A DNA stretch of 37,602 bases from Candidatus Aenigmatarchaeota archaeon (GCA_016202875.1 JACQNX010000047.1:1-37602), one strand, 5' to 3'. Counted from the first letter of the stretch, positions 8,057 to 28,867 are shown. Numbers and translations: made by a program. The notes: generated from the sequence alone by a model not told the origin.

Positions 8057-9232
8057 TTAACCTTCTAATTGTTCGAAGTTTTCGCCTTTCAGCTCTTCCA
8101 AAGTTAAAATCTTCACGCTGCCTGAACGCACGCGTTCGCGGTAGCCCATTCCAACTACGTACTCTACAGTTCTGCGGGATGCGAGATCAACAATGGACTG
8201 GTTAACTTTTCCGTCAAAGATTATTGCATAAACAGTTGTGAACTCCGGCAAAATGTCTGCCAACTCCGAGAGGGGGACTTTTGATATCACCTGCAGCTCC
8301 CTGTCCACGAGACAGGCTGCGCGCGTGCCTATAAGATCTTCAAGGATTTTTACAAATGCCTCTTTTTCTGAGGCGTCTATCTCCTGCACTTCTTCAGAAA
8401 CGTCTTCGATGGGCTTGTTCAATGCCTGATCTACTGGGGCACGCTCGCGCAGGGCTTTGAATATCTGTTTTTTCGTGAGCTCTTCCACTTCCTTGCCCGG
8501 CTCCGCCCATGCTACGTAATCTATCTCTGCAACTGCGAGCAGTTTTTTTAAATCAAGATTGCCACCACGGTCGCCGTCCAAAAATGCTGTTGTTGTTTTT
8601 TCTTTTGTTAGGCCAATTACTGCCTGCGGGATTTTGCTGCCTTCAATGGCGATGACATTCCTGATGCCGTTCTTTAGAAGGTTTATCACATCAGCCCGGC
8701 CTTCAACGATAATAATATCGTCTGATGTGTGGACGTCAGGGCCGCAGCTGAGGCCGTTAAAATTAGAAACCTCCCAGGAGCGCACAGACTCTTTTATCAT
8801 CTCTGATATCTTTTGCGTGTCCGGCATGCCGGTGTCCATCATTGCGCGCAGGATTTCCTTTGCCCTTTCAACAACATAACGCCTCTTCTGGCTGCGGACA
8901 TCCTCAACTTTAACTATGTCTATTTTTGCCTCGCAAGGGCCGACTTTTTCTATTGTTTCCATGGATGCTGCGATGAGGGACGTTTCGCTTGCGTCCAGGC
9001 TGGACGGGATTATGATATCCGCAAAGGCTTTGCCTTTGTTTGATTTCACATTTACCTCTATTCTTCCTATACGGCCTGTGTGCTGCAGCTCGCGCAGATC
9101 GAGATCCGCGCCCAGGAGCCCCTCTGTCTGGCCGAAAATAGCGCCGATTATATCAGGCTTTTCCACTATACTTGTTGCATGCATTCTGGCATGTATCAAA
9201 TACTTTGCAAAATTCTGGGCCAATTTGGCCAT
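8057..9232 (-). CDS. dnaG: Archaeal DnaG-type primase (TOPRIM; exosome-associated in studied archaea)
   Basis: VEKPDIIGAIFGQTEGLLG, VEGRADVINLL, FLDGDRGG, GKEVEEL; GAGGTGG RBS before ATG 9232. Confidence 0.96.
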   Translation of the reverse strand: MAKLAQNFAKYLIHARMHATSIVEKPDIIGAIFGQTEGLLGADLDLRELQHTGRIGRIEVNVKSNKGKAFADIIIPSSLDASETSLIAASMETIEKVGPCEAKIDIVKVEDVRSQKRRYVVERAKEILRAMMDTGMPDTQKISEMIKESVRSWEVSNFNGLSCGPDVHTSDDIIIVEGRADVINLLKNGIRNVIAIEGSKIPQAVIGLTKEKTTTAFLDGDRGGNLDLKKLLAVAEIDYVAWAEPGKEVEELTKKQIFKALRERAPVDQALNKPIEDVSEEVQEIDASEKEAFVKILEDLIGTRAACLVDRELQVISKVPLSELADILPEFTTVYAIIFDGKVNQSIVDLASRRTVEYVVGMGYRERVRSGSVKILTLEELKGENFEQLEG

Positions 9233-9448
9233 AAATACCACCTCTTTTCTTGGGGATGGCAGAAACAGGCCTACGCAGATGGTGCGAATATAAAATCTGT
9301 TTTCAAATACATCGACACACCGATTAACTATAAAACATCAAGACCTATTCTGTCACCAATGGCTGCCTAAGGCGGCCATCTATAAAGTAATGGCATGGAA
9401 ATGCTTTTAAGGCTTTTTCAACGCCCTTTTTCGGCCAAAAATAAAAGA

Positions 9449-11681: not shown

Positions 11682-11768
11682 ATGCACCCCTTAAACTTAT
11701 CGCAAATGGCAAAATCACGACGCCTTTATAAAGTTTTTTTCTGAATGCAGATTCTAAGAATGATGCAT

Positions 11769-13025
11769 ATGAACAGCGCAATACCCAGATTTTATGAGAT
11801 GCCACTGGACCGGAGACTGAAAACTGTCCAAGAATTTTCTGGTCTGGATGATAATGAAATTGCACTGCTGAAACAGGAATGTGCTCTGGACAACAGCATA
11901 GCAGAAATCATGATAGAGAATGTTATAGGAACAACGCATTTGCCTGTTGGCATAGCGACATATTTTCTTATTAATGACAAAGATTATCTCATACCGATGG
12001 CAATTGAAGAGCCTTCTGTGGTAGCGGCGGCGTCGCATGCTGCCAAACTTGCGCGCCTTTCCGGCGGATTCAAGGCAAAGAGCACTACGCCTGTAATGAC
12101 AGGGCAAGTACAGATAAAAAATGTACATGATTTTGATATAGCTGAGGAAACTATTCTGAAAAGCATAGACAGCATTAAAGCTCTGGCAAACAAACAGGAC
12201 TCCACGCTTGTGAAAAGGGGTGGCGGACTTGTTTCTGCGGAATGCCGAAAATTAGAAACGGAAAGGGGCGACATGCTTGTTGTTCATCTTAACATAGATG
12301 TCAGGGATGCGATGGGCGCGAATGCTGTGAATACAATGTGTGAAAGTGTTGCTCCATACCTCGAAGAACTAACAGGCGGCATTGCTTCAATGAAGATCAT
12401 CTCGAACCTTGCGGCACAGAGGCTTGTCACTGCGGAGGCTGTATGGAAAAAGAATGAGCTGGGGGAAGAACTGATAGAGGGCATTTTAGATGCGTATGCA
12501 TTCGCCAAAGCGGACCCTTACAGGGCAGCGACGAACAACAAAGGTATAATGAACGGCATTGATGCTGTGCTCATAGCAGCAGGGAATGACTTCCGCGCTG
12601 TAGAATCAGGCGCACATTCTTATGCCTGCATGTCTGGAAGGTACCAGCCGCTCGCACACTACAGAAAAAACGAAAATGGAGATCTTGTGGGGAGGATAGA
12701 ACTTCCCATGGCTGTTGGTATTGTGGGTGGGGCAACAAAAACAAATCCCATTGCGCGTATTGCCTTGAAAATTCTTGGTGTGAGAAGTGCTAATGAGCTT
12801 GGTGAAATATCTGCGTGCGCCGGGCTGGCAAACAACTTCGCTGCTGTGCGGGCTATTGTGAAAGAAGGAATCCAGCATGGTCACATGAAGTTGCATGCAA
12901 AGAATATTGCGATTATTGCTGGCGCGCAGGGCGATAAGGTACATCAACTTGCAGAAAGGATGATAAGAGAAAAAATGGTCAGTGTGTCACGGGCTGAAGA
13001 GCTGCTGAAAGAGATGGGACACTAG
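11769..13025 (+). CDS. mvaA: HMG-CoA reductase, class II
   Basis: ENVIG, EEPSVVAA, DAMGANAVN, ATNNKGIMNG, GNDFRA, GHMKLH class II motifs. Start uncertain (11745-11769). Confidence 0.94.
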   Translation: MNSAIPRFYEMPLDRRLKTVQEFSGLDDNEIALLKQECALDNSIAEIMIENVIGTTHLPVGIATYFLINDKDYLIPMAIEEPSVVAAASHAAKLARLSGGFKAKSTTPVMTGQVQIKNVHDFDIAEETILKSIDSIKALANKQDSTLVKRGGGLVSAECRKLETERGDMLVVHLNIDVRDAMGANAVNTMCESVAPYLEELTGGIASMKIISNLAAQRLVTAEAVWKKNELGEELIEGILDAYAFAKADPYRAATNNKGIMNGIDAVLIAAGNDFRAVESGAHSYACMSGRYQPLAHYRKNENGDLVGRIELPMAVGIVGGATKTNPIARIALKILGVRSANELGEISACAGLANNFAAVRAIVKEGIQHGHMKLHAKNIAIIAGAQGDKVHQLAERMIREKMVSVSRAEELLKEMGH

Positions 13026-13141: not shown

Positions 13142-14089
13142 CTAAGTTCTGTGCAAGGCCAAAAATTCTTTCGTTTGCCTGAAGAATTCTTTTAGCGTGA
13201 ATTCTGCAAGTTTTTTTGGTGCATCTTTCTCAACCGAGTCAATCAAGGACTGAAAATAGCGCTCTTTTTTTGCCGAAATGTTAAGTAACGGAAATCCCTC
13301 ATCCAGCAAAGTCTTATTCAATATCAGTCTGCATATTCGCTTGTTTCCGTCAAGAAATGGATGCGCTTTGTAAAGATTATAATGTGCTAAAGCCGCCTTT
13401 TCAATTGGATTCAGTCTTGTCAATTTATACCACTCAACAAACCCATCAATCAACCTGTTCAGTCTAGTATAATGCGGCGGTCTGTAAGCGATTTCTTTTC
13501 CAAGAGGATTTTTGGTATCCTGCATGTGCAAATAGACTTGTTGCTTCCTTAGTTTACCTGGAGTTTTTTCTTCAAAGCTTGCCATTATTGTCTTATGCAA
13601 ATCGAGCAAATATTTTTTGTCAAGTATATGGTTTTCTTTTATTGATTCGACAGCTTCTAGCATGTTTTTGCTGATCTGTTCGCGCGTGTTTAAATGCCTG
13701 TTTTTTCCAAAAGCGTTCTGGACATCTCTAAGGCTGACACTAACGTCCTCTGTTGTAAGTGTGGTCAGAGTAAAAAGAATTGTACTGTCAACTTCGTACT
13801 TTCGCTTTCGGGCGCCCGAAAGGGAGGCGAATATATTGTTAAAAGCGTCGCGAAAAAGCAACGCTTTTATCAGGTCGTCTTTTGAAATCAATTTGTTGTC
13901 ATAATGCTTTCCTGCTAATTTTGATATTATTTTCGATTTGAATGGATCTTCTATTTTTGCTACTTCACTTTGCAATGGTTTTTTCGTACCTATATATTTG
14001 CTGAATGTCTTTGACTTGTTCGAAACGAAATAGCTTAGGTCGAGGTAGTAGTATTTTTTCCCGCTAATGGTTTTTGTCCTCAGTGCCAT
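13142..14089 (-). CDS. Fic family protein with an N-terminal beta-sheet putative DNA-binding domain
   Basis: HPFLDGNKRICR Fic motif; N-terminus RTKTISGKKYYYL...FSKYIG. Confidence 0.88.
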   Translation of the reverse strand: MALRTKTISGKKYYYLDLSYFVSNKSKTFSKYIGTKKPLQSEVAKIEDPFKSKIISKLAGKHYDNKLISKDDLIKALLFRDAFNNIFASLSGARKRKYEVDSTILFTLTTLTTEDVSVSLRDVQNAFGKNRHLNTREQISKNMLEAVESIKENHILDKKYLLDLHKTIMASFEEKTPGKLRKQQVYLHMQDTKNPLGKEIAYRPPHYTRLNRLIDGFVEWYKLTRLNPIEKAALAHYNLYKAHPFLDGNKRICRLILNKTLLDEGFPLLNISAKKERYFQSLIDSVEKDAPKKLAEFTLKEFFRQTKEFLALHRT

Positions 14090-16547: not shown

Positions 16548-17585
16548 ATGGCGATAGGCATTGCCGGGTACGGGGCTTACATTCCGCGCTTCAGGATCAA
16601 GGTTGAGGAGATTGCCAAAGTATGGGGCATGGACGCTAACGCAATAAAAGATGGGCTGCTTGTTGAGGAGAAGAGCGTCCCAGATCAGGATGAGGACACG
16701 ATAACAATAAGTGTGGAGGCTGCGCGGAATGCTCTTGCGAGGGCTGGCATAGAGCCGAAACTCATTGGTGCTGTTTTTGTTGGGAGCGAGTCACATCCGT
16801 ATGCCGTAAAGCCTTCTGGAACAGTTGTGGCAGAAGCGCTTGGGATTGGGACAAATTACACTACTGTAGATACAGAGTTTGCGTGCAGGGCTGGGACAAC
16901 TTCCATGTACATCTGCTATGGTTTAGTGAAAGCTGGCGAGATAAAACATGGCTTGGCTATCGGAGCAGACACTGCTCAGGGGCAGCCAGGCGATGCACTT
17001 GAGTACACAGCTGCTGCAGGCGGAGCTGCTTTTATTGTTGGGCAAGAACCGCTGGCAGAGATAGAAGCATATTTTTCATTTACATCGGATACACCAGATT
17101 TCTGGAGACGTGAGGGGCAGGACTATCCTAAACATGGCGCGCGATTCACAGGTGAGCCTGCTTATTTCAGGCATGTCGTAAGCGCGACAAAGGGGTTGAT
17201 GGAAAAGACAGGACTAAGGCAGCAGGATTTCAACCATGTTGTGTTTCATATGCCTAATGGGAAATTCCCGGTGCGGGCTGCAAAGCTGCTTGGGTTTGAT
17301 ACAAGGGCACTAGAACATGGGCTTATTGTTTCAAAAGTAGGCAATACATATTCTGGCTCCTCACTTCTTGGTCTTACCAGTGTCCTGGACAATGCGAAAC
17401 CTGGCGAGCGCATCCTAGTGACATCTTTTGGCAGTGGTGCGGGGTCAGATTCATTTTCTTTTGTTGTGACAGACAAAATTCTGGAAAGGCGTGACAAAGC
17501 ACCAAAAACAGAAGACTATATCAAACAGCGGAGCTATGTTGATTACGGGATTTACGCAAAGCTGAGGGGGAAACTGAAGGTGTGA
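16548..17585 (+). CDS. Archaeal HMG-CoA synthase
   Basis: [18 protein letters not shown] (catalytic Cys), [33 protein letters not shown]. Confidence 0.96.
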
Positions 17586-18512: not shown

Positions 18513-18965
18513 ATGATTGAGATTTACTTGATTGGAGAAGAAGGAGAAAGACAACAAGCTATGCAAAATGCTACAGGTTTTCTTCCCAGGCCGCTAAATG
18601 AGAATATGCTTAATTATCTTTTTTCTGATAAACACAGATCGGTTTTTCTTGTCTTATGTCGGGGCGTGTATCGAAGAGGTGCGTATCGTATGCATTTAAG
18701 TCCTGATGTTGAGGTCTGCTCTGATGCTGACATTCTTGATCAGTATTTCTATGCAAATGGCTTTAATGATGTTTATTTTCTTGAAAACCCGCGAGAGGCG
18801 CTTTCTATGCTTAGAGACAAGAAATGTAGAACAGATGTCATAATAGCGAGTATGGCGCATTCAGAAATAAACGGCCCTGAACTTGCCGAAGAAATAAGAA
18901 AATGGAAAAATGAAGGAGCAAATGCTATGAAACGTAAAACACAAACTAGGATGCGAATACAATGA
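18513..18965 (+). CDS. Hypothetical protein with a partial, degenerate receiver (REC)-like domain
   Basis: ENPREALSML...DVIIASMAHSEINGPELAEEIR mirrors REC EAL..L...pDliilD..mP.mdG.el...ir, but the phosphoacceptor Asp position is Ser. AGGTG RBS before ATG 18513. Confidence 0.6.
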   Translation: MIEIYLIGEEGERQQAMQNATGFLPRPLNENMLNYLFSDKHRSVFLVLCRGVYRRGAYRMHLSPDVEVCSDADILDQYFYANGFNDVYFLENPREALSMLRDKKCRTDVIIASMAHSEINGPELAEEIRKWKNEGANAMKRKTQTRMRIQ

Positions 18966-20131
18966 AAAACGCAGCAGTAGTCGGAATCGGGCAAACGAAG
19001 TTCGGCGAGCACTGGGACAAGTCGCTCAAGGATATGATATGCGAGGCATCGCTTGCTGCTGTTGCGGATGCAGGCGTTGAGAAGCAGGAGATAGAGAGCA
19101 TTTACATCGGAAACATGTCTGCAGGACGGTTTGCTGGACAGGAGCATTTGGGCGCGCTTGCTGCTGACTGCATAGGGGTGAGTGTGCCAGCGACGCGGTA
19201 CGAGGCTGCTTGCGCTTCGGGCAGTGTTGCGTTCAGGAATGCCTACAATGCTGTTGCAGCCGGGCAGGAAAAGCTGGTGCTTGTCATAGGCGTGGAAAAG
19301 ATGACTGATGTTGCTGTGCCCTCTGCTGTGCTGAGCTTGGCTGCTGCAGGAGACCAGGAGTGGGAAGCTTCTTCAGGCCTGACATTTGCTGGTGCTTACG
19401 CCCTGATTGCGAGAAGGCATATGCATGAGTTCGGCACGACCAAGGAGCAGCTTGCAGCTGTGGCTGTGCAGAACCACAGTAATGCTGTGGGCAATCCTTA
19501 TGCCCAGTTTCCTGTTGCTGTGAAAATGGAAGATGTCCTGAATGCGAACATGATTGCTGAGCCTCTAGGTCTTCTGGACTGTTCGCCGATAACAGACGGG
19601 GCTGCGGCTGTTGTTATTGCTGAAGAAAGTATAGCTAAAAAGCTGGGCAATGCGCCTGCATGGGTTCTTGGCTCTGGGCAGGGTGCAGACACACTGGCTC
19701 TGCACAGCCGCAAATCGCTCACAGAGATGCTGGCTACAAAACAGGCTGCGAAAAAAGCGTTTGAGCAGGCTGGTGTGCAGAGAAAGGATATGGATGTTGT
19801 GGAAGTTCATGACTGTTTTACAATTAATGAGATTATTGGTTTAGAGGATTTAGGCTTTTGTGAAAAAGGAAAAGGCGGCAAATTTGTTGAGGACGGAAAG
19901 ATAGAAAAAGGTGGTGAAGTTCCTACAAACACGCTCGGCGGACTAAAGGCATGCGGTCATCCTGTGGGCGCGACTGGAGTGAGGCAGATTATTGATATCA
20001 CAAGGCAGCTCAGGGGCAAGGCTTACAATCAGGTTAATGGCGCCCGGTACGGGCTGAACCTGAATATTGGAGGCTCTGGGGCGACGGCGGTTGTGAATAT
20101 TTTCGGAAGTGATGTGCCAGATGGGGGATGA
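18962..20131 (+). CDS. Acetoacetyl-CoA thiolase (archaeal type)
   Basis: GIGQTKFGE, EAACASG, GVEKM, CSPITDGAAA, EVHDCFT, GHPVGATG. Confidence 0.95.
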   Translation: MKNAAVVGIGQTKFGEHWDKSLKDMICEASLAAVADAGVEKQEIESIYIGNMSAGRFAGQEHLGALAADCIGVSVPATRYEAACASGSVAFRNAYNAVAAGQEKLVLVIGVEKMTDVAVPSAVLSLAAAGDQEWEASSGLTFAGAYALIARRHMHEFGTTKEQLAAVAVQNHSNAVGNPYAQFPVAVKMEDVLNANMIAEPLGLLDCSPITDGAAAVVIAEESIAKKLGNAPAWVLGSGQGADTLALHSRKSLTEMLATKQAAKKAFEQAGVQRKDMDVVEVHDCFTINEIIGLEDLGFCEKGKGGKFVEDGKIEKGGEVPTNTLGGLKACGHPVGATGVRQIIDITRQLRGKAYNQVNGARYGLNLNIGGSGATAVVNIFGSDVPDGG

Positions 20132-20411: not shown

Positions 20412-20813
20412 ATGCCGCACAGATCAAGCGTTGCACAGCCGTGGAGGATGCAGGCAAGCAGGTACAGGCTTGCGGGCAATGAGTGTGTGATCTGCAAGAA
20501 TGTGGATTTCCCTCCCAGAAGGATTTGCAGTAAGTGTGGGGGGCATGATTTGGTGGAAAAGCAGCTGGCAGGAGAAGGGATAATAGAAACGTTTACGATT
20601 CTGCACACTGCGCCGGAGGGGTTTGAGGGGACAACGCCTTATGCTATCGGGCTCATAAGACTGAAAGAGGGGCCTGTTATCACTGCGCGGCTTGTTGGAG
20701 ATTTTGAGAAGATTGGGATTGGGAAGAGTGTAAAGGCTGTTTTCAGAAAAGTTTATGAGCATGGTGAAGGCGGGCTTATACACTACGGATTCAAATTTGA
20801 GATTGTTGAATAA
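20412..20813 (+). CDS. DUF35 Zn-ribbon/OB-fold protein (thiolase-HMGS scaffold)
   Basis: CVIC...FPPRRICSKC, PEGF..PYAIGLI.L.EG, FRK...G.IHYGFKF; operon context with HMGS and thiolase. Confidence 0.93.
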   Translation: MPHRSSVAQPWRMQASRYRLAGNECVICKNVDFPPRRICSKCGGHDLVEKQLAGEGIIETFTILHTAPEGFEGTTPYAIGLIRLKEGPVITARLVGDFEKIGIGKSVKAVFRKVYEHGEGGLIHYGFKFEIVE

Positions 20814-21243: not shown

Positions 21244-21294
21244 TCTTACAACTTGATAATTAGTTTTATAAAGCCATGTTTAACAAAAATACTT

Positions 21295-21565
21295 AACTCC
21301 AACTAAAACCAAGAAACCCTGCAAATTTTATGGAAACCAGACACCTTGATTTCTTGTGGAGGATGTTATTTGTGTTGGTTGCTTGTGGGCTTTCACGAAA
21401 AACGGACAACCTTCCTTTCTTATAACGATGTTATTTGAGGTATATTTATATGGCAGGTTGCAGGAGAAAGGAAGGGGTGTTGGCGATTTTTGAACATATA
21501 TGTTAAGAAACCTTGGTTTCTGATAGAGATAAGTTTATATATGCTGGAAGAGAAATAGGGGTGTT
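21295..21565. other. Probable replication origin (oriC) with ORB-like boxes upstream of cdc6
   Basis: About 370-bp non-coding gap before cdc6. ORB-like boxes against TCCAnnnGAAAnnAAGGGGT: TCCACAAGAAATCAAGGTGT (minus, 21341-21360), TGCAGGAGAAAGGAAGGGGT (plus, 21459-21478), TCTATCAGAAACCAAGGTTT (minus, 21508-21527), with weaker ones near 21298, 21407 and 21545; AT-rich stretches between them. Confidence 0.8.
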
Positions 21566-21612
21566 AGTGTTTTTATTTTTGTTGAACATTTTCATACAGG
21601 TGTGGGTGTGGA

Positions 21613-22872
21613 ATGGAATCAGTGACTACTACAACGGCAAATAACACATCACATATAGCACCGAGCATATCAGCTAATATCTTTTCTCAATACATACAGA
21701 ACGAAGGCGTATTCAAGGATAAAAAATTCCTTTCCTCTTCATTTATTCCACAAACAATACCACACAGGGAACAGGAAATACAGCACATAAGTTCTATGCT
21801 TGCCCCTGTCCTGAAAGGATACAACCCCAACAATGTCTTCATATACGGGACATGTGGAACAGGGAAAACAATCTGCACAAAATTTGTTCTTGGCCAGCTT
21901 GCGGATATCTCCAAAAACAAGGTCACAACACTTTATGTAAATTGCAAGATGAAAAAGGTTGCTGATACAGAGTACCGGCTGTTTGCACAGATGCTTAAAG
22001 ACCTGAATGAATTTGTGCCGGACACAGGGCTGCCCACCGACGTACTTTACAGGAAGTTCTTTGCCAGGATAGAAGAAAGAAAGATGCCTGTAATCATAGT
22101 CCTGGATGAGATAGACGTGCTGCTGAAAAAAGTAGGAGACGAGTTTCTTTATAACCTCACACGCATTAACACAGAGCTGGTAAGGTCGCATGTCACTGTC
22201 ATAGGCATAACAAACGACCTTGCGTGCAGGGATCGGTTAGATGCGCGGGTAAAGTCATCACTGTCAGAAGAAGAGATCATGTTCAAGCCGTACAATGCTG
22301 TGCAGTTAAAAGATATTCTTGGATTTAGGGCCACGATGGGATTCAGGGAAGGCGCTATTGAAGACGGAGCTCTGAGCAAGTGCGCGGCGCTTGCTGCGCA
22401 GGAACATGGAGATGCGCGCAGGGCTTTGGATCTGATGCGAGTGGCTGGAGAGGTAGCAGACCGTCTTGGTGAAAGGGTGGTCACAGAAAAGCATGTAGAC
22501 ATGGCAGAACAGAAGATAAGTTTAGACCGTATTACTGAGGCTGTGCGCATACAACCTAAACAATCACAGGCTGTCCTGTACTCTGCCCTGTTGCTGGAAA
22601 AAAGGAATAAATCACAGAAGAAGTGGACTGACTCACGTCTGCTTACGGGCGATGTTTATAATTCCTACAAAACTGTATGCGAGAAAGGCGGCATGAAAGC
22701 GCTGACACAGAGAAGGGTGAGCGATCTCATAAGCGAGCTGGACATGCTTGGCATAATAAATGCAAGGATTATTTCAAAAGGCAGACACGGCAGGACGCGG
22801 GAGATATCACTGGACATGGCAGAAACCACACTAGAGAAGGTTGAGAAACTCCTCATGGACAGGTTTGAATGA
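21613..22872 (+). CDS. cdc6: Orc1/Cdc6 replication initiator
   Basis: IPHREQEI, Walker A GTCGTGKT, Walker B VLDEID, HGDARRALDL, winged-helix LTQRRVSDLISELDMLG...GRHGRTR. Confidence 0.97.
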   Translation: MESVTTTTANNTSHIAPSISANIFSQYIQNEGVFKDKKFLSSSFIPQTIPHREQEIQHISSMLAPVLKGYNPNNVFIYGTCGTGKTICTKFVLGQLADISKNKVTTLYVNCKMKKVADTEYRLFAQMLKDLNEFVPDTGLPTDVLYRKFFARIEERKMPVIIVLDEIDVLLKKVGDEFLYNLTRINTELVRSHVTVIGITNDLACRDRLDARVKSSLSEEEIMFKPYNAVQLKDILGFRATMGFREGAIEDGALSKCAALAAQEHGDARRALDLMRVAGEVADRLGERVVTEKHVDMAEQKISLDRITEAVRIQPKQSQAVLYSALLLEKRNKSQKKWTDSRLLTGDVYNSYKTVCEKGGMKALTQRRVSDLISELDMLGIINARIISKGRHGRTREISLDMAETTLEKVEKLLMDRFE

Positions 22873-22935
22873 TGATCCTGCTGGGAAAGAAATAAGAGTT
22901 TTTCCCAAACTTTACAAAAATAAGGCGACATTTTC

Positions 22936-24036
22936 ATGGCAAACGCGGGGGCGGTGGAGATATTTTTCAAAAAAGGCAGGCTCCTTACCCCTGAGGCCCT
23001 TCGCTACCTGGAAAACAAGAATGCCGAGAACTTTTTATCAGAGAGCTCTGATCTTGTTGTGGATGTAGAAGACCTGCTTGCCAGGGAAGACAAGATACAC
23101 ATAATCAGAAACATAACAGGGAAAAAGAGCGAGGTCACCACAGCTGATATTGTTCGCTTTTACAATTCCAAATACGAGAAAATGAAAAACATAATTCTCT
23201 CACGCATGCAGAAGAATTTTATCTCGATAAACAAATTAGATACCCAGAGGAGCGAGGTTTGTGTCATCGGCATAGTCAGAGACATTAAGGGCAACGAAGG
23301 GAAGAAGAATATAGAGCTGGAAGATTCAACAGGGTCTGTAACAGTTGTGTTTGAGCCCAACCTTATAGAAGACCTGGAACTGGATGATGTTGTTGCTGTA
23401 CAGGGCATAGCTGCTGGGAAGGTTATGTTCGGCAAAAAAATACTATTTCCAGATGTTCCGCTACGGCAGCCGACAAAAGGCAGTGGGAAGGCATGCTTTA
23501 TCTCTGACCTGCATTTAGATGAGGCACCAAAGCAGGATCTGGAAAAATTTCTGCGCTGGCTTGAGGGGCAGGATACAAGATACCTTTTCGTAGTCGGCGA
23601 TATCGGCGACATCAATATTTTTGAATACCTGGTTGATGCTTACTGCAGAGATAAAAAGGTATTCGTAGCGATGGGCAAAGACGCAGAGGAGATGCCTGGC
23701 TTTCCATCAGAGCTCAAATCAAAAAATGTAATCGCTCTCAGTAACCCCGCACTGGTTGAAATAAATGGCATCAAAATCCTGGTTATAAACAATTTTGACA
23801 TCAAAATGTTGAGGAAAAGGCACCTCGGCAACATAAAACCCATACTTGAAGAAGACTTCATGGCACTAGAAGAACTGCCTGATATTGTGCATTGCGGGCA
23901 CAGCCATGAGGCGAGCATAAATAATTACAAATCCACGACAATAATTAATGCCGGCTCTTTACTCACAAATTTCAGACCGGTAATAGTGGACTTTGCCACG
24001 CGTGAATGCATGCAGGTCGATGTTGCAGGTTTGTAG
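22936..24036 (+). CDS. PolD small subunit (DP1)-like protein, shortened, exonuclease probably inactive
   Basis: DP1-type N-terminus (KGRLLTPEA), OB fold (IGIVRDI...ELEDSTG...DDVVAVQG..FPDVP) and phosphoesterase fold with SDLH, GD, RHL and GHSH, but GNHD replaced by GKDA and HG by NF. Confidence 0.85.
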   Translation: MANAGAVEIFFKKGRLLTPEALRYLENKNAENFLSESSDLVVDVEDLLAREDKIHIIRNITGKKSEVTTADIVRFYNSKYEKMKNIILSRMQKNFISINKLDTQRSEVCVIGIVRDIKGNEGKKNIELEDSTGSVTVVFEPNLIEDLELDDVVAVQGIAAGKVMFGKKILFPDVPLRQPTKGSGKACFISDLHLDEAPKQDLEKFLRWLEGQDTRYLFVVGDIGDINIFEYLVDAYCRDKKVFVAMGKDAEEMPGFPSELKSKNVIALSNPALVEINGIKILVINNFDIKMLRKRHLGNIKPILEEDFMALEELPDIVHCGHSHEASINNYKSTTIINAGSLLTNFRPVIVDFATRECMQVDVAGL

Positions 24037-24077
24037 ATTTATAGTGATTTGCGCAGCAAATAAATGAGGGTGATTAT

Positions 24078-27000
24078 ATGAAAATGCAGATAGTTGATGT
24101 GGATTATTTTTTAAACACAAACAAGCCAGTTGTGAGAATTTTTGGCAGGTCGCAGAATGGCAATGCTGTCTGCATCCTGTACGACCAACTGCTTCCCTAT
24201 TTTTATGTCAAATGTTCTGAAGAGCAGGCTGAAAGAATTAAGGGAATAAAAGAGGTGCGCAGCGTAGAAGACGCAGAGATGTACATACCAATAGGATATC
24301 AAGAAAAAAAGACCCTCCTCAAGAAAATCATTTTACTAAACCCGCAGGATGTGCCAGAAACACGGGACAGAATATCTGCTCTTGGTATCAGAGAGGTGTT
24401 TGAGGCGGACATCATGTTTAAATACAGATTTATGATTGACCATGGTCTTTTTGGCATGCAGTGGATAGATGCAGAATGCACAAAAGCCAACACAAAAGTT
24501 GCAAAGGTGCCGGCTTACTGTGCAACCACAATAAAACCAGTAGAACAAACAGGCAACGCAGAACTTAGAATACTCTCTTTTGACATAGAATGCGTTTCAG
24601 ATGATATCAAGAGAGCGCCTGACGCAAAGAAAGACCCTATAGTCATGATATCCATGGCATTCCACCCTGCGTACAAAGGCAAGAAAAATATTGTTTTTGT
24701 GGCCAAGCACGTTCTAGGAGAAAATACCAAGGGATTTGGTTCAGAAAAGAATATGCTAGAAGAATTTGTAAAGCTTATTGATGACTACGACCCTGATATA
24801 ATCACAGGTTATAATATCAACAATTTTGACTTGCCTTATTTAATGGAGAGGCTTAAGCACAATAAAATTCCCCTCAACATAGGACGATCGGACAAGCCTA
24901 TGTTCGGCAGGACAACGGGCATGACTACAGAGTTCGTAATACCTGGCAGGGTTGTTTTTGATCCTTACCAGATATTAAAGCGCGACCCATGGCTGAAATT
25001 CCAGCGCTATGACCTCAACACAGTGGCAAAGAAAATGCTGAATGAAGAGAAACACAATGTTGAATACAGCGAGATGGCAGCTCTTTGGGCGGGTTCGCGA
25101 GAAGGGCTGAGCAGATTTATAGAGTACGCACGAAAGGACGCTGACCTTTCATTAAGGCTGGTTGTAGAGAAAGGCCTGATGGACAAGTTCTACGAACTTT
25201 CAAAGATTTCTGGCGTTCTCCTGCAGGATGTTTTCGGAGGACAGACACGTCGGGTGGACACCATGATACTGCATGAATTCAAGAAAATGGACTTTGTCAT
25301 GCCGCTCAATCCCTCAAAATCAGACCTTATCAGAAGAGCAAAGGAGCGCGATAAAGAAGGGCTCAAGGGCGCAATAGTCATGGAGCCTAAAAAAGGACTG
25401 CACGCAGACGGCTGTGTCATTGTTCTGGATTTCAAGAGCTTGTACCCTTCGATAATGAGAACGTACAACATATCACCCGATACTTTATTACAGCAGGGCA
25501 ATGCACCACATGAGACATCGCCAACAGGGGCAAAATTTGTAGCTGCAGGAATACAGCAGGGCATTTTGCCTTCTCTGCTAACACAGCTTATAGAAACACG
25601 AAGCAAGATTAAAAAAGAAATGAAGGCCGCATCCGGCGAGAAGAAGAGGATTCTTAATGCAAAACAGCTCGCAATAAAGGACATGTCGAACAGCGTGCAT
25701 GCAAGCACAGATATAGTTGTTCAGGAACCTACAGGCAACTTGCACGTGTGTGAGATAGAAACGCTTTTCAACGAACTGGTGAAGGAGCACCCTGTAAAAA
25801 AAATCGGAGATACAGAGGTAATAGAACTTGACAGATGGCAGACATTAAGCGTAGATGGCAATAAATCATGCTTCAAACCTATGTACGCTATATCAAGGCA
25901 TAAGCATGCGGGCGAATTGACAAGGATCAAGACAGCAATGAGCGAAGTTATGATTACAGATGACCACAGCATCATGGCTATGGCAGGGAGGCAATCAAAC
26001 AGACAAAGAGAAAGCCAGTTTGATGGGCTTGTGGAAAAAGGCGGCAAGGAGGTTTCTGAAGAAGATATCATAGCTCAAGTCAGAAAAGTCTGTCTGCCGG
26101 AAAACGACGTTACATTTAACTGGCTTGAATTTTTAAAGACTTTACCAGAAGAAGAAATTTTAGATATATGTTTGTATATCCCTAAAAGCCTGCAGCTGAA
26201 TAAAAAAGGCTGGCTCAAAAACAGAGTAAAGATGCTTTCTGCATTCAATGGACCGGCAGATTCAGCAACTTTGCAGACGATTGTTGAACGACGTATACTG
26301 AGAAGCTCGGAGGGTGTTTTGATAAATAGAACAGGCTTAACAACAGTCGGCAATTGTGGCATTGTACCTGTATATGAGCCCACAGAAGACGGAGAGGCGC
26401 TGATCGATTTCTACGAAGATTTTACATATGCCAAGGAAGAACCACTGTATTACACACTTCCGATTACAGCTGCACAGAAACTGCCCAAATTTATTGAGCG
26501 GCATTCATTCGTGGCTGTCGGCGGAGCGCATCAAGGCCGCAGAAAGGTTCCTATTCACCTGCCTGTTACGGACGAACTTGCAGAACTTATAGGATGGTTT
26601 GTAGCAGAGGGCAGTACGTACAAGCGGGGTAATTCTTTCAGGTCAACAATATCCAATACAAATAAAAGCCATATCAGACGTATAACGTACCTGATCAAAA
26701 AATGTTTTGGTTACGACGCACGTATATTTAATAAAGATATAACAATGAACACAAAGCTGTTATATCTGTTCTTCAGGCATCTGTGCGGCTCATCCTCTTA
26801 TATGAAACAGGTACCGGATTTTATACTTAATTCCAACACGAAGATCCGCGAAGCATTTATGAAAGGTTACTATAGCGGCGATGGCAATGTAAAAGTGCAC
26901 CGTATTAATACAGTGAGTAAAACTCTGGCTGCACAGTTGAACGTCATGCTAAAAGAGTTCGGTGGCGTGCAGTATAATTATTTTGACGGGCTATACCGCA

Positions 27001-28244
27001 TATCAAGAAGACAGACTTCACACGGGAACAAAATAGTTTCCGGCGATCTTTTCGGGCAGAGGCCAAAGATATCACGATGCGCGTCTTCTGAATACGTGTA
27101 CGACCTTTCTGTCCGCGATACAGAAATGTTCGTAACTGCACAGGGCACAGTCTTGCACAATTCATTCTACGGATATTGTGGGTACACACGTGCGCGACTA
27201 TACAACATAGATGTCGCTGCTTCTATCACTGCGTATGGAAGAGAGAATTTGCAGAAAACGAAGAAACTCATAGAAGAAAACTTTGATGTAGAGGTTATTT
27301 ATGCGGACACAGATTCCGCATTTCTCAAAACAAAGACAATAAACTTAGATGAGGCAAAAAAAATAGGCGAAGGTATAGCCCGGTTTGTCACAGATAATCT
27401 GCCAGGCTATTTGGAACTGCAGTTTGAAAAAATATACAGGACGTTTATCATCCTTACAAAGAAAAGATATGCAGGGCTCAAGTACGAACTTGCAGGCGAT
27501 ACATGGACCAATGAAATAGAGATGCGTGGCATAGAGACTGTGAGAAGAGACTGGTGCCCGCTGGTTTCGCAGGTGATGCTAGATGTTCTGGACATTCTGC
27601 TTAAAGAAGGGGATTTGCAAAAAGCCATCGATGTTGTCAAAGATGTATTAGAAAAACTCCGCCATAACCAGATAGACTTGGACAGGCTTACAATAATAAA
27701 AGGCATTACAAAACATGTTGACAGCTATGAGGGACTGCTGCCACACATTGAACTGGCAAGAAAAATGACCATGAGAAACCCTCAGGCAGCACCAAGAATA
27801 GGAGACAGAATAGGATTTGTTATTATAAGGGGCAACCAACTGCTCTCAAAACGAGCTGAGGATCCGGAATATGTCAAGAAAAATAACATAGAAATTGATT
27901 CTGATTATTATATTCATAACCAGTTGCTGCCACCACTGGAAAGGATATTCACGTCGGTTGGCGTGGAGAAGAGCGAGATACTGGGCAGCGGCAGGCAAGT
28001 CAGCCTCGGAGATGTTATGAACGGCACAAAACGAAAAATGAAACATGACATAGACGTTCGGTATGACCATGCAGACAGCACAGATAAAAAAGAACAGCCG
28101 CTGCAGGGCTGGGAAGCGTTTGTGTGCAAAAAATGTGCCAAGAGTTTCAGGTCAATCCCGCTTCAAGGATCATGTGAATGCGGCGGCGAAATACTAATGA
28201 GCTATCATGGATCTGTGAGCAACAGGGCTGTTATTAACCAGTGA
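24078..28244 (+). CDS. polB: Family B DNA polymerase (intein-containing precursor) with a C-terminal DP2-like Zn finger
   Basis: Exo motifs FDIE, YNINNFD, YARKD; Pol motifs DFKSLYPS, K...N|SFYG, YADTDS, KKRY; C-terminal CKKC...CECGG. 1388 aa, 898 aa after intein removal. Confidence 0.96.
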   Translation: MKMQIVDVDYFLNTNKPVVRIFGRSQNGNAVCILYDQLLPYFYVKCSEEQAERIKGIKEVRSVEDAEMYIPIGYQEKKTLLKKIILLNPQDVPETRDRISALGIREVFEADIMFKYRFMIDHGLFGMQWIDAECTKANTKVAKVPAYCATTIKPVEQTGNAELRILSFDIECVSDDIKRAPDAKKDPIVMISMAFHPAYKGKKNIVFVAKHVLGENTKGFGSEKNMLEEFVKLIDDYDPDIITGYNINNFDLPYLMERLKHNKIPLNIGRSDKPMFGRTTGMTTEFVIPGRVVFDPYQILKRDPWLKFQRYDLNTVAKKMLNEEKHNVEYSEMAALWAGSREGLSRFIEYARKDADLSLRLVVEKGLMDKFYELSKISGVLLQDVFGGQTRRVDTMILHEFKKMDFVMPLNPSKSDLIRRAKERDKEGLKGAIVMEPKKGLHADGCVIVLDFKSLYPSIMRTYNISPDTLLQQGNAPHETSPTGAKFVAAGIQQGILPSLLTQLIETRSKIKKEMKAASGEKKRILNAKQLAIKDMSNSVHASTDIVVQEPTGNLHVCEIETLFNELVKEHPVKKIGDTEVIELDRWQTLSVDGNKSCFKPMYAISRHKHAGELTRIKTAMSEVMITDDHSIMAMAGRQSNRQRESQFDGLVEKGGKEVSEEDIIAQVRKVCLPENDVTFNWLEFLKTLPEEEILDICLYIPKSLQLNKKGWLKNRVKMLSAFNGPADSATLQTIVERRILRSSEGVLINRTGLTTVGNCGIVPVYEPTEDGEALIDFYEDFTYAKEEPLYYTLPITAAQKLPKFIERHSFVAVGGAHQGRRKVPIHLPVTDELAELIGWFVAEGSTYKRGNSFRSTISNTNKSHIRRITYLIKKCFGYDARIFNKDITMNTKLLYLFFRHLCGSSSYMKQVPDFILNSNTKIREAFMKGYYSGDGNVKVHRINTVSKTLAAQLNVMLKEFGGVQYNYFDGLYRISRRQTSHGNKIVSGDLFGQRPKISRCASSEYVYDLSVRDTEMFVTAQGTVLHNSFYGYCGYTRARLYNIDVAASITAYGRENLQKTKKLIEENFDVEVIYADTDSAFLKTKTINLDEAKKIGEGIARFVTDNLPGYLELQFEKIYRTFIILTKKRYAGLKYELAGDTWTNEIEMRGIETVRRDWCPLVSQVMLDVLDILLKEGDLQKAIDVVKDVLEKLRHNQIDLDRLTIIKGITKHVDSYEGLLPHIELARKMTMRNPQAAPRIGDRIGFVIIRGNQLLSKRAEDPEYVKKNNIEIDSDYYIHNQLLPPLERIFTSVGVEKSEILGSGRQVSLGDVMNGTKRKMKHDIDVRYDHADSTDKKEQPLQGWEAFVCKKCAKSFRSIPLQGSCECGGEILMSYHGSVSNRAVINQ
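25692..27161 (+). mobile_element. Intein with LAGLIDADG homing endonuclease in PolB motif B (490 aa)
   Basis: Interrupts KDMSN|SFYG; starts SVHAST, block B ITDDHS, LAGLIDADG-like LIGWFVAEG and FMKGYYSGDG, block F YVYDLSV, ends VLHN followed by Ser+1. Confidence 0.95.
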
Positions 28245-28343
28245 ATAGGCAACCTGTATCGTGTTATTGTTGGTGTCAGTCCCTCTATGGCACTACGTAC
28301 AAGATCAGCAAATCTTAAATACAAGAGCGAATAATGAAAATGT

Positions 28344-28538
28344 ATGGCCAACAGGCACATCAAAGTTATCAACGGAAGAAAATATTACTATGAATCCATA
28401 AGAAAAGGGAAAAAAGTAACCAGCAGATACCTGGGGCCAGTGGGCGAGAGGAAAAGAAAGCTAAGAGAGGCACAGCAGCCGCAGGAACTAGTTCTTGAGG
28501 AACAAGAAATAAGGCCAGAAGAAAATTATATTGGATGA
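28344..28538 (+). CDS. Small basic protein, putative beta-sheet nucleic-acid-binding domain
   Basis: HIKVINGRKYYYESIRKGKKVTSRYLGPV; TATA-like CTTAAATA at 28314-28321; resembles the N-terminus of the Fic protein in this window. Confidence 0.75.
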   Translation: MANRHIKVINGRKYYYESIRKGKKVTSRYLGPVGERKRKLREAQQPQELVLEEQEIRPEENYIG

Positions 28539-28681
28539 GGTTGGTGTGTTACCAATTAGCAGCTTCTAGAGGAAGTGCATTTTTAAGCTGATCTTGATAT
28601 TCCAACAATTTCTTTGGGCGTTAGTTTTAAAAGGGTTGTGCGCCAAACGAATGCATAAAATACTGTAAAGAGGTGCAAAAC

Positions 28682-28858
28682 ATGGCAGAACTTCTTGTGG
28701 TAAGAAGCAAAGTAAGGGAACTTGCAAAGAAAAAGAAAATGAACATGGGTGCTGATGCTGCTGACGCACTGAGCAAAGAAGTTGCCCGTCTTGTAGAGAG
28801 GGCATCAGAAAGGGCCAAGGCGAACAGAAGGTCAACGATCAAGGGCAGAGACGTGTGA
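28682..28858 (+). CDS. Prokaryotic histone-fold protein, short type with truncated alpha3 (58 aa)
   Basis: MAELLVVRSKVRE...DALSKEV..LVERA.ERAKAN.RSTIKGRDV with the histone RxTxxxxD signature ending one residue after the Asp; GAGGTG RBS. Confidence 0.88.
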   Translation: MAELLVVRSKVRELAKKKKMNMGADAADALSKEVARLVERASERAKANRRSTIKGRDV

Positions 28859-28867
28859 ACTACTTTT

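Follow-up and report, generated by a model that had tools for sequence, protein, structure and literature searches.

A family B DNA polymerase with a DP2-type zinc ribbon beside a reduced DP1 homolog and orc1/cdc6 in a Candidatus Aenigmatarchaeota archaeon

Eukaryotic Pol delta, alpha, epsilon, and zeta each have a family B DNA polymerase (PolB) as catalytic subunit, a Cys-rich C-terminal domain (CTD) and an inactive B subunit. We analyzed a locus of related design on a 37,602-nucleotide stretch of DNA from a Candidatus Aenigmatarchaeota archaeon (GCA_016202875.1, JACQNX010000047.1:1-37602; the whole stretch is called the window below). Here the genes for an Orc1/Cdc6 initiator, a compact homolog of DP1 (the small subunit of archaeal polymerase D, PolD) and a PolB whose tail resembles part of DP2 (the catalytic subunit of PolD) follow one another in the same direction on the + strand, each where a preliminary description of this DNA had placed it. 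Taken together, the evidence makes it very probable that this DPANN archaeon, which would lack the catalytic subunit of PolD, has a two-subunit PolB-DP1 replicase.

The closest described systems are archaeal. Kazlauskas et al. (2020, NAR, PMC7544198) defined the B6 group of PolBs, in which 'B6-aenigma1' enzymes carry one zinc motif, nearest to that of the DP2 CTD; the same paper reports that DP2 is missing from most Aenigmarchaeota, describes an inactive 'Aenigma' group of DP1, and proposes that PolB replaced DP2 in Aenigmarchaeota, as a parallel to or a precursor of the eukaryotic design. In a second study (2025, Nat Ecol Evol, PMC12680538), Baldrarchaeia are described in which, as here, DP2 is lost, DP1 is kept and a PolB is fused to a DP2-derived, DP1-binding CTD (PolB3-DP2CTD). 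In Baldrarchaeia the CTD has its full length and is like that of eukaryotes, whereas that of Aenigmatarchaeota is shorter and termed 'degenerate', in agreement with the tail of the present PolB. Interaction between DP1 and PolB-DP2CTD is reported there for both clades from AlphaFold3 models and yeast two-hybrid (Y2H) assays, for Aenigmatarchaeota at the level of the phylum, not of the pair studied here. The preliminary description had conceded only that the domain fusion might be known; the whole idea is already in print in these two papers, the system has been described for Aenigmatarchaeota, and the locus re-derives it. What it adds to the main texts of both papers is the cdc6-DP1-PolB order beside repeats of the origin recognition box (ORB) type, a motif-by-motif account of DP1 decay and an intein in motif B of this PolB; the gene order appears neither in these main texts nor in full-text searches, and the supplements of the two papers may show it.

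By tail motif, host and absence of DP2, the locus would be of the B6-aenigma1 type, and its PolB may belong to the B6 group of the Delta-like clade. It has an Aenigmatarchaeota host, a single C-terminal Cys4 motif like zinc finger III (Zn-III) of DP2, no DP2, and a DP1 that is deprived of catalytic motifs and predicted to bind the tail, and we see no essential difference. PolD itself (P. abyssi, T. kodakarensis; PDB IDs: 6hms, 6t8h, 6knb) shares with the locus the OB plus phosphodiesterase fold of the small subunit (TM score of 0.73) and a near-identical partner-binding zinc ribbon. It differs in that the two-barrel catalytic core of DP2 is absent here, with synthesis and proofreading both in PolB, in that the DP1 studied here has three deletions in the phosphodiesterase domain and no longer has motifs III and IV, and in that Zn-III alone is kept, a finger that is followed by ~165 residues in DP2. 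The likeness to the eukaryotic polymerases lies in a PolB that would be tethered by a C-terminal metal-binding element to a presumably inactivated subunit of the DP1 family, in a B-subunit fold matched at TM scores of 0.54 to 0.66, and in proofreading, which the present PolB retains like Pol delta and epsilon. A CTD of the eukaryotic type, with CysA and CysB and a helical bundle, was not found in the PolB tail, which has one short Cys4 ribbon of ~20 residues, and the DP1 homolog is nearer to DP1 (21 to 23% identity) than to B subunits (13 to 15%).

The PolB tail and its predicted docking on DP1

The encoded protein is a family B polymerase by its Pfam matches to DNA_pol_B (367 bits) and DNA_pol_B_exo1 (140 bits), together with intein and LAGLIDADG domains. 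The three proofreading motifs are complete, as had been claimed beforehand (Exo I FDIE168, Exo II N246..FD, and Exo III Y350..D), polymerase motifs A (D451..SLYPS) and C (DTDS1077) are present, and motif B becomes KDMSNSFYG once the intein is removed. Pairwise comparison of the N-terminal half placed the PolBs of Thermococcales and Pyrobaculum nearest (E 2e-57), followed by Pol delta (1.5e-47) and Pol alpha (9e-25).

Residues 1347 to 1380 of PolB matched three NCBIfam models of DP2 (best PRK14714, E 1.4e-5), and the tail was the sole match in the whole assembly to the full-length DP2 model TIGR00354. A profile of 21 tail sequences was searched against all PDB sequences; among the 16 sequences listed at E ≤ 10, the only three under E 1e-3 were the DP2 chains 6knb_B, 6hms_B, and 6t8h_B (E 4e-6 to 4e-5; T. 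kodakarensis 6knb_B matched over residues 1127 to 1159 with E 3.9e-6, P. abyssi with 3.6e-5). The next match was to adenylate kinase (E 0.029), and that to the CTD of Pol epsilon was not significant (5vbn_B, E 2.5). The PolB tail and DP2 have in common the motif EF-C-x-KC-x3-YRR-PL-x-G-x-C-x-CGG, with C1350, C1353, C1366, and C1368 as the cysteines of the Cys4 ribbon; the four Cys, the P and the GG are invariant in the 21 tails, and each of the 24 PolB tails fetched has the ribbon, those of family f3 included. By its sequence, the extension is best taken as homologous to zinc finger III of DP2 only and not to the whole DP2 CTD; the DP2-like extension of the preliminary description was borne out for that finger and for no more.

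In family f3 (loci L036-L039; genomes G011, G025, G022, and G018), PolB stops right after the Cys4 ribbon and lacks both the basic linker and the GWEEF and ..SYHGS flanks. Shorter matches had suggested that these PolBs have no tail, an idea that was rejected, as the ribbon is kept and the flanks are gone. In several f3 genomes PolB is relocated away from DP1 or convergent with it.

Multimer prediction, with alignments of 24 rows for DP1 and 21 rows for the tail, gave the DP1-PolB tail model a score of 0.75, the best of three controls reaching 0.00; the mark used for such models is attained by 58 of 80 solved complexes and by two of 110 mismatched pairs. The runs share at least 88% of contacts, with a pLDDT of 61 for the partner. 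On DP1, the predicted interface comprises the OB domain and the helix that precedes it (residues 63-80, 113-116, 129-133, and 149-150, plus 303), and on PolB the RS-IPLQG loop (1358-1364) and residues 1371-1374 and 1382-1386. In this model the ribbon is predicted to be the DP1-binding element.

The DP1 homolog and the distribution of DP2

The only Pfam domains recognized in the DP1 homolog were an OB fold and a phosphoesterase of the calcineurin-like type (Metallophos_2), and the NCBIfam models of DP1 matched it far under their cut-off (159 versus 445 bits). In phmmer searches it matched DP1 of P. abyssi with E 2.7e-17, the P. abyssi and T. kodakarensis chains together spanning E 2.7e-17 to 6e-15. 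An AlphaFold2 model built with 24 relatives (pLDDT 88.4) had P. abyssi DP1 as its top Foldseek match (TM score of 0.73, 21-23% identity), and the next folds were the B subunits of Pol epsilon, delta, zeta, and alpha (TM 0.54-0.66, 13-15% identity).

Active DP1 carries five phosphodiesterase motifs, DxH, GDxxD, GNHD, H, and GHxH. Aligned with the canonical DP1s of a family in the same class that bears DP2, the homolog has MGK-D in place of the canonical PGNHD of motif III and Asn in place of the motif IV His, both at residues that every canonical DP1 aligned has kept, and it lacks three insertions found in the canonical phosphodiesterase domain. Motifs I (DxH), II (GDxxD), and V (GHxH) are retained. 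Inactivation is partial at the sequence level, and the earlier claim that DP1 has lost its nuclease residues held for motifs III and IV but not for the other three. The motif III His is missing in 25 of 25 Aenigma-type DP1s aligned, and the other metal ligands differ from genome to genome among these sequences, as expected under relaxed catalytic constraint. Conserved among them are the linker between the OB and phosphodiesterase domains (PD-P-R-P--G), the motifs LSNPA, MLKKR-LG, and PDIV, and the N-terminal helical domain. On this pattern of residues, we presume that the homolog is catalytically dead and that its nuclease activity has been lost.

The assembly that holds the window comprises 815 kb in 85 contigs and is 77.7% complete. 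Neither DP2 nor a second DP1 was found in it: the DP2 N-domain (PF03833) had no match, and a custom profile that included canonical DP1s found one DP1-family gene and no second. PF04042 (DNA_pol_E_B) had no match in this genome, not even to the DP1 homolog, so it could not serve as a DP1 detector here and the custom profile was used instead. Among 61 sampled genomes of the order, the DP2 N-domain was found in none, including the 14 that are at least 90% complete, while the DP1 homolog was found in 54 (14/14 of the high-quality ones) and the CTD-bearing PolB matched strongly in most. In the wider sample of 151 genomes from the phylum, eight have a DP2 N-domain, namely all seven of family f13 and one of the 31 in f18. 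The DP1 of f13 genomes is canonical, with a length of 450 to 494 aa and all five motifs intact, and in four of these genomes the tail profile matched DP2 frames (1124-1605 aa in three) and short frames of ~205 aa, the size of adenylate kinase, but no PolB.

The f18 genome with DP2 (G140) has a DP1 homolog in which all five phosphodiesterase motifs are lost, with PolB directly after it; a PolB tail with the Cys4 ribbon was matched on a separate contig (C30; L057), and a 3-kb contig bears a canonical DP1-DP2 pair. The latter is possibly a binning contaminant. The loci of this genome are L054 (C11), L057 (C30), and L044/L056 (C64).

The assembly of the window has a single PolB gene. Many genomes of the order have a second PolB paralog of 27-36% identity (e.g., G007:C2, G026:C8, G017:C25, and G032:C2), matches to which end before the tail; no such paralog was found in the window's own assembly.

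Gene order, candidate origin and other features

Gene order was surveyed at 55 loci of DP1 from 54 genomes; G057 counts twice, and an N-terminal fragment in G006 was dropped. The cdc6 gene lies directly 5' of DP1 on the same strand at 51 of the 55 loci, and PolB directly 3' of DP1 on the same strand at 41 (within 2 kb; 37 within 500 bp). At the others, PolB is adjacent and convergent (3/55), upstream of DP1 (1/55), 6 kb or 18 kb off on the same contig (2/55), or on a different contig (8/55, with the DP1 gene at a contig end in at least three of these). Linkage of cdc6 and DP1 at oriC is an old and widespread feature of Euryarchaeota, and the origin island of P. abyssi holds cdc6, DP1 and DP2; cdc6 and DP1 would lie by the origin here as in Thermococcales (PMC2643942). 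In the f13 loci that were fetched, DP1 adjoins neither DP2 nor cdc6: no cdc6 lies within ~1.3 kb upstream of DP1, and DP1 and DP2 are on different contigs in four f13 genomes.

The 369 bp upstream of cdc6 lie in a kilobase bin of GC content 0.38 and contain four repeats of the form AGAAA-N4-6-GKTGT, which seem to resemble the ORB consensus. They are inverted, two on the − strand followed by two on the + strand, and the inner pair brackets an AT-rich stretch at ~21430-21455. An exact repeat search gave two copies only; fuzzy and then pattern searches revealed the rest. All four matches to the pattern in the window lie in this region, where 0.56 would be expected and none of 100 shuffles reaches four, figures that are flattered by a pattern written post hoc from these very repeats. 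The cluster is also unique among the 25 matches in the 815-kb assembly. At 23 related loci the pattern transfers weakly, with nine matches in 13.3 kb upstream of cdc6 versus 16 in 172.9 kb elsewhere (~7-fold), and related 9-mers such as TCCACAAGA recur in eight of 24 upstream regions. The repeats and their setting make it plausible that the region upstream of cdc6 is a replication origin.

Table 1. Coordinates of the replication cluster within the window
Feature	Position	Strand	Description
Intergenic candidate origin upstream of orc1/cdc6	21244-21612	.	369 bp; four ORB-like repeats
ORB-like repeat	21341-21354	-	AGAAA-N4-6-GKTGT
ORB-like repeat	21406-21420	-	AGAAA-N4-6-GKTGT
ORB-like repeat	21465-21480	+	AGAAA-N4-6-GKTGT
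ORB-like repeat	21551-21564	+	AGAAA-N4-6-GKTGT
orc1/cdc6 initiator	21613-22872	+	419 aa; Pfam Cdc6_C, Cdc6_lid, AAA; TIGR02928
DP1/B-subunit homolog, compact	22936-24036	+	366 aa; N-terminal helical domain, OB fold, shortened phosphodiesterase domain
Family B DNA polymerase	24078-28244	+	1388 aa encoded; 898 aa after predicted splicing
Intein in PolB	25692-27161	+	Residues 539-1028, 490 aa; in motif B (KxxxNSxYG)
PIP-box-like QVSLGDVM	27996-28019	+	Residues 1307-1314; between thumb domain and C-terminal extension
PolB C-terminal extension	28020-28241	+	Residues 1315-1388, ~74 aa; basic linker and Cys4 zinc ribbon

The initiator scored 409 bits against TIGR02928 (cut-off 181) and has the AAA+ domain, the lid and the C-terminal winged helix of an Orc1/Cdc6 protein. 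It is separated from the DP1 homolog by 63 bases, and the DP1 homolog from PolB by 41. The element within motif B of PolB has the features of a class 1 intein, with Ser at position 1 (S539), H1027-N1028 at its end and Ser at position +1 (S1029), and it matched Pfam Intein_splicing and LAGLIDADG_3 as well as the TIGR N- and C-terminal intein models. To set its boundaries we used the relatives L016 and L017, which have no intein and read KDM(A/S)NS(Y/F)YGY across the site. Just before the extension, QVSLGDVM may be a PCNA-binding motif, judging from its sequence; the tails of relatives share an invariant G-x-G-x-Q core, and among them the pattern Q-x-x-[LI]-x-[DE]-[ILVM]-[MLVF] recurs.

The motif-B intein occurs in some genomes of the order (G032, G047, G058, G046, G003, and G028) and not in others, among the latter the closest relatives, L016 and L017, a patchy pattern which indicates that the intein was gained or lost recently. 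Elsewhere in relatives, other long frames also have intein-like matches.

Downstream of PolB, the ~620 bp at 28245-28867 hold only two small open reading frames, 28344-28538 (64 aa) and 28682-28858 (58 aa, rich in Lys, Arg, and Ala), neither of which had a match in a Pfam scan. Just upstream of the cluster lie genes of the mevalonate pathway (11745-13025, 16548-17585, 18962-20131, and 20412-20813), comprising HMG-CoA reductase, an HMG-CoA-synthase-like gene, thiolase and a DUF35-type OB/zinc-ribbon protein. The − strand encodes a protein with a Toprim domain (archaeal DnaG-like) at 8057-9241 and one with a Fic domain at 13142-14089. A tRNA scan and an Rfam scan of the whole window gave no match.

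Readings of the locus and their meaning

In the two-subunit replicase that we consider very probable, the catalytic subunit would be a proofreading-proficient PolB, matured by splicing out the 490-aa intein, and its last ~40 residues would be a relic of zinc finger III of DP2. The ribbon would dock on the OB domain and the preceding helix of the shortened, catalytically disabled DP1. DP1 would have ceased to proofread because PolB does so, and it would have been kept as a structural or adaptor subunit. The N-terminal domains of DP1, like eukaryotic B subunits, link the polymerase to other parts of the replisome; the conserved N-terminal domain of the present homolog probably ties the polymerase to such parts, and we infer an adaptor role for DP1. 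As the DP1 and PolB genes directly follow orc1/cdc6 by a likely origin, initiator and replicase are probably co-expressed, and the three genes are probably co-transcribed. The preliminary description had put forward such a PolB-DP1 heterodimer, to be examined by a search of the genome, modeling of the complex and a survey of synteny; the reading is supported, with neither DP2 nor a second DP1 found in the assembly, a complex model that passes its controls, and genes conserved and mostly adjacent in relatives.

Several points weigh against this reading. Since PolD DP1-DP2 complexes have already been solved, the multimer prediction may mirror likeness to them and not binding of this pair, and the pLDDT of the tail in the model is only 61. 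With motifs I, II, and V in place, residual metal binding or activity of DP1 is possible. The adjacency of DP1 and PolB is not universal among the 55 loci, and cdc6 is more tightly linked to DP1 than PolB is; as the former linkage is ancient in Euryarchaeota, the cluster could partly be inherited context. The incompleteness of the assembly means that the absence of DP2 rests mainly on relatives. As for the oriC that had been placed ahead of cdc6, the four inverted repeats and the bin of GC content 0.38 favor it, but the GC skew has no switch or inflection there, and the repeat pattern was, as stated, fitted to the region itself.

The strong cdc6-DP1 linkage (51/55, against 41/55 for DP1-PolB) is also what one would see if the DP1 homolog were an adaptor associated with the origin or with CMG, working together with Orc1/Cdc6 and forming no stable complex with PolB, the cluster being an inherited origin-proximal replication island. 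Linkage of the two genes at oriC is widespread in Euryarchaeota, where a Cdc6-DP1 interaction has been proposed (PMC2643942), and the f3 PolBs, truncated in their tails and in several genomes relocated from DP1, point the same way. Yet all 24 fetched PolBs, f3 included, have the Cys4 ribbon and in it an invariant P-L-x-G loop (1361-1364 in the present PolB), this loop forms the center of the predicted interface, and a Y2H interaction has been reported for the phylum (PMC12680538); the two roles are compatible, and a DP1 that acts as adaptor without stably binding PolB is very improbable. Less probable still is that the PolB is accessory or derived from a mobile element, with another PolB paralog as the main replicase. 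Many relatives do have a second, CTD-less PolB at 27-36% identity, the gene carries an intein, and Kazlauskas et al. suggested that the B6 group arose from mobile elements (PMC7544198), but only one PolB was found in the window's own assembly, the CTD-bearing PolB gives strong matches in the majority of the 61 order genomes, where the second paralog is patchy, and the gene sits by the initiator gene and the candidate origin. A canonical DP2 hidden in the unassembled ~22% of the genome, as the true partner of DP1 and with the PolB ribbon incidental, could be imagined from the completeness of 77.7%, the 85 contigs and the presence of DP2 in eight of 151 genomes of the phylum. It is extremely improbable in view of the order (0/61 genomes, 0/14 of those at least 90% complete) and of the genomes that do have DP2, which are confined to f13 (7/7) and one of f18 and have a motif-intact DP1 of 450-494 aa and not the short form; a search of four f13 genomes with the tail profile found DP2 or ~205-aa frames and no PolB, and the f18 genome has a PolB with a tail.

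How the swap from DP2 to PolB came about is a separate matter. It may have occurred in place, PolB recombining into DP2 downstream of cdc6-DP1 at the origin and leaving zinc finger III as the sole relic. The oriC-cdc6-DP1-PolB cluster would then be a fossil of an event like the one by which the PolBs of eukaryotes acquired a DP2-derived CTD, and the dead DP1 would survive with its N-terminal domain tethering PolB to the CMG helicase while its OB domain holds the ribbon. Traces of such a replacement were sought in f13 and the idea found no support there, DP1, DP2, and cdc6 being unlinked in the loci fetched; the DP2 ribbons of f13 match the tail profile (21-29 bits) no better than those of Thermococcales (27-30 bits). 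Of the earlier claim that PolB sits in the slot of DP2, the analogy with Thermococcales stands, but we consider replacement in situ unlikely, f13 having neither DP1-DP2 nor cdc6-DP1 adjacency in the loci fetched.

The locus is a clean further example of a known system and opens no fresh question. Its additions are modest: a gene order by the initiator gene that is conserved across the order, the ORB-like repeats, a DP1 active site that has decayed by degrees, a short list of residues predicted to lie at the interface, and a comparator family in the same class that has retained DP2. That family, f13 (L047-L055; G065, G075, G085, and G147), would lend itself naturally to internal comparison when the swap from DP2 to PolB is considered. 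A PolB docked through a DP2-derived zinc element on an inactivated DP1 has the architecture of the eukaryotic replicative polymerases, and a living archaeal lineage with such a design bears on the origin of the eukaryotic replisome, a significance that the papers of 2020 and 2025 have already recognized and in part tested.

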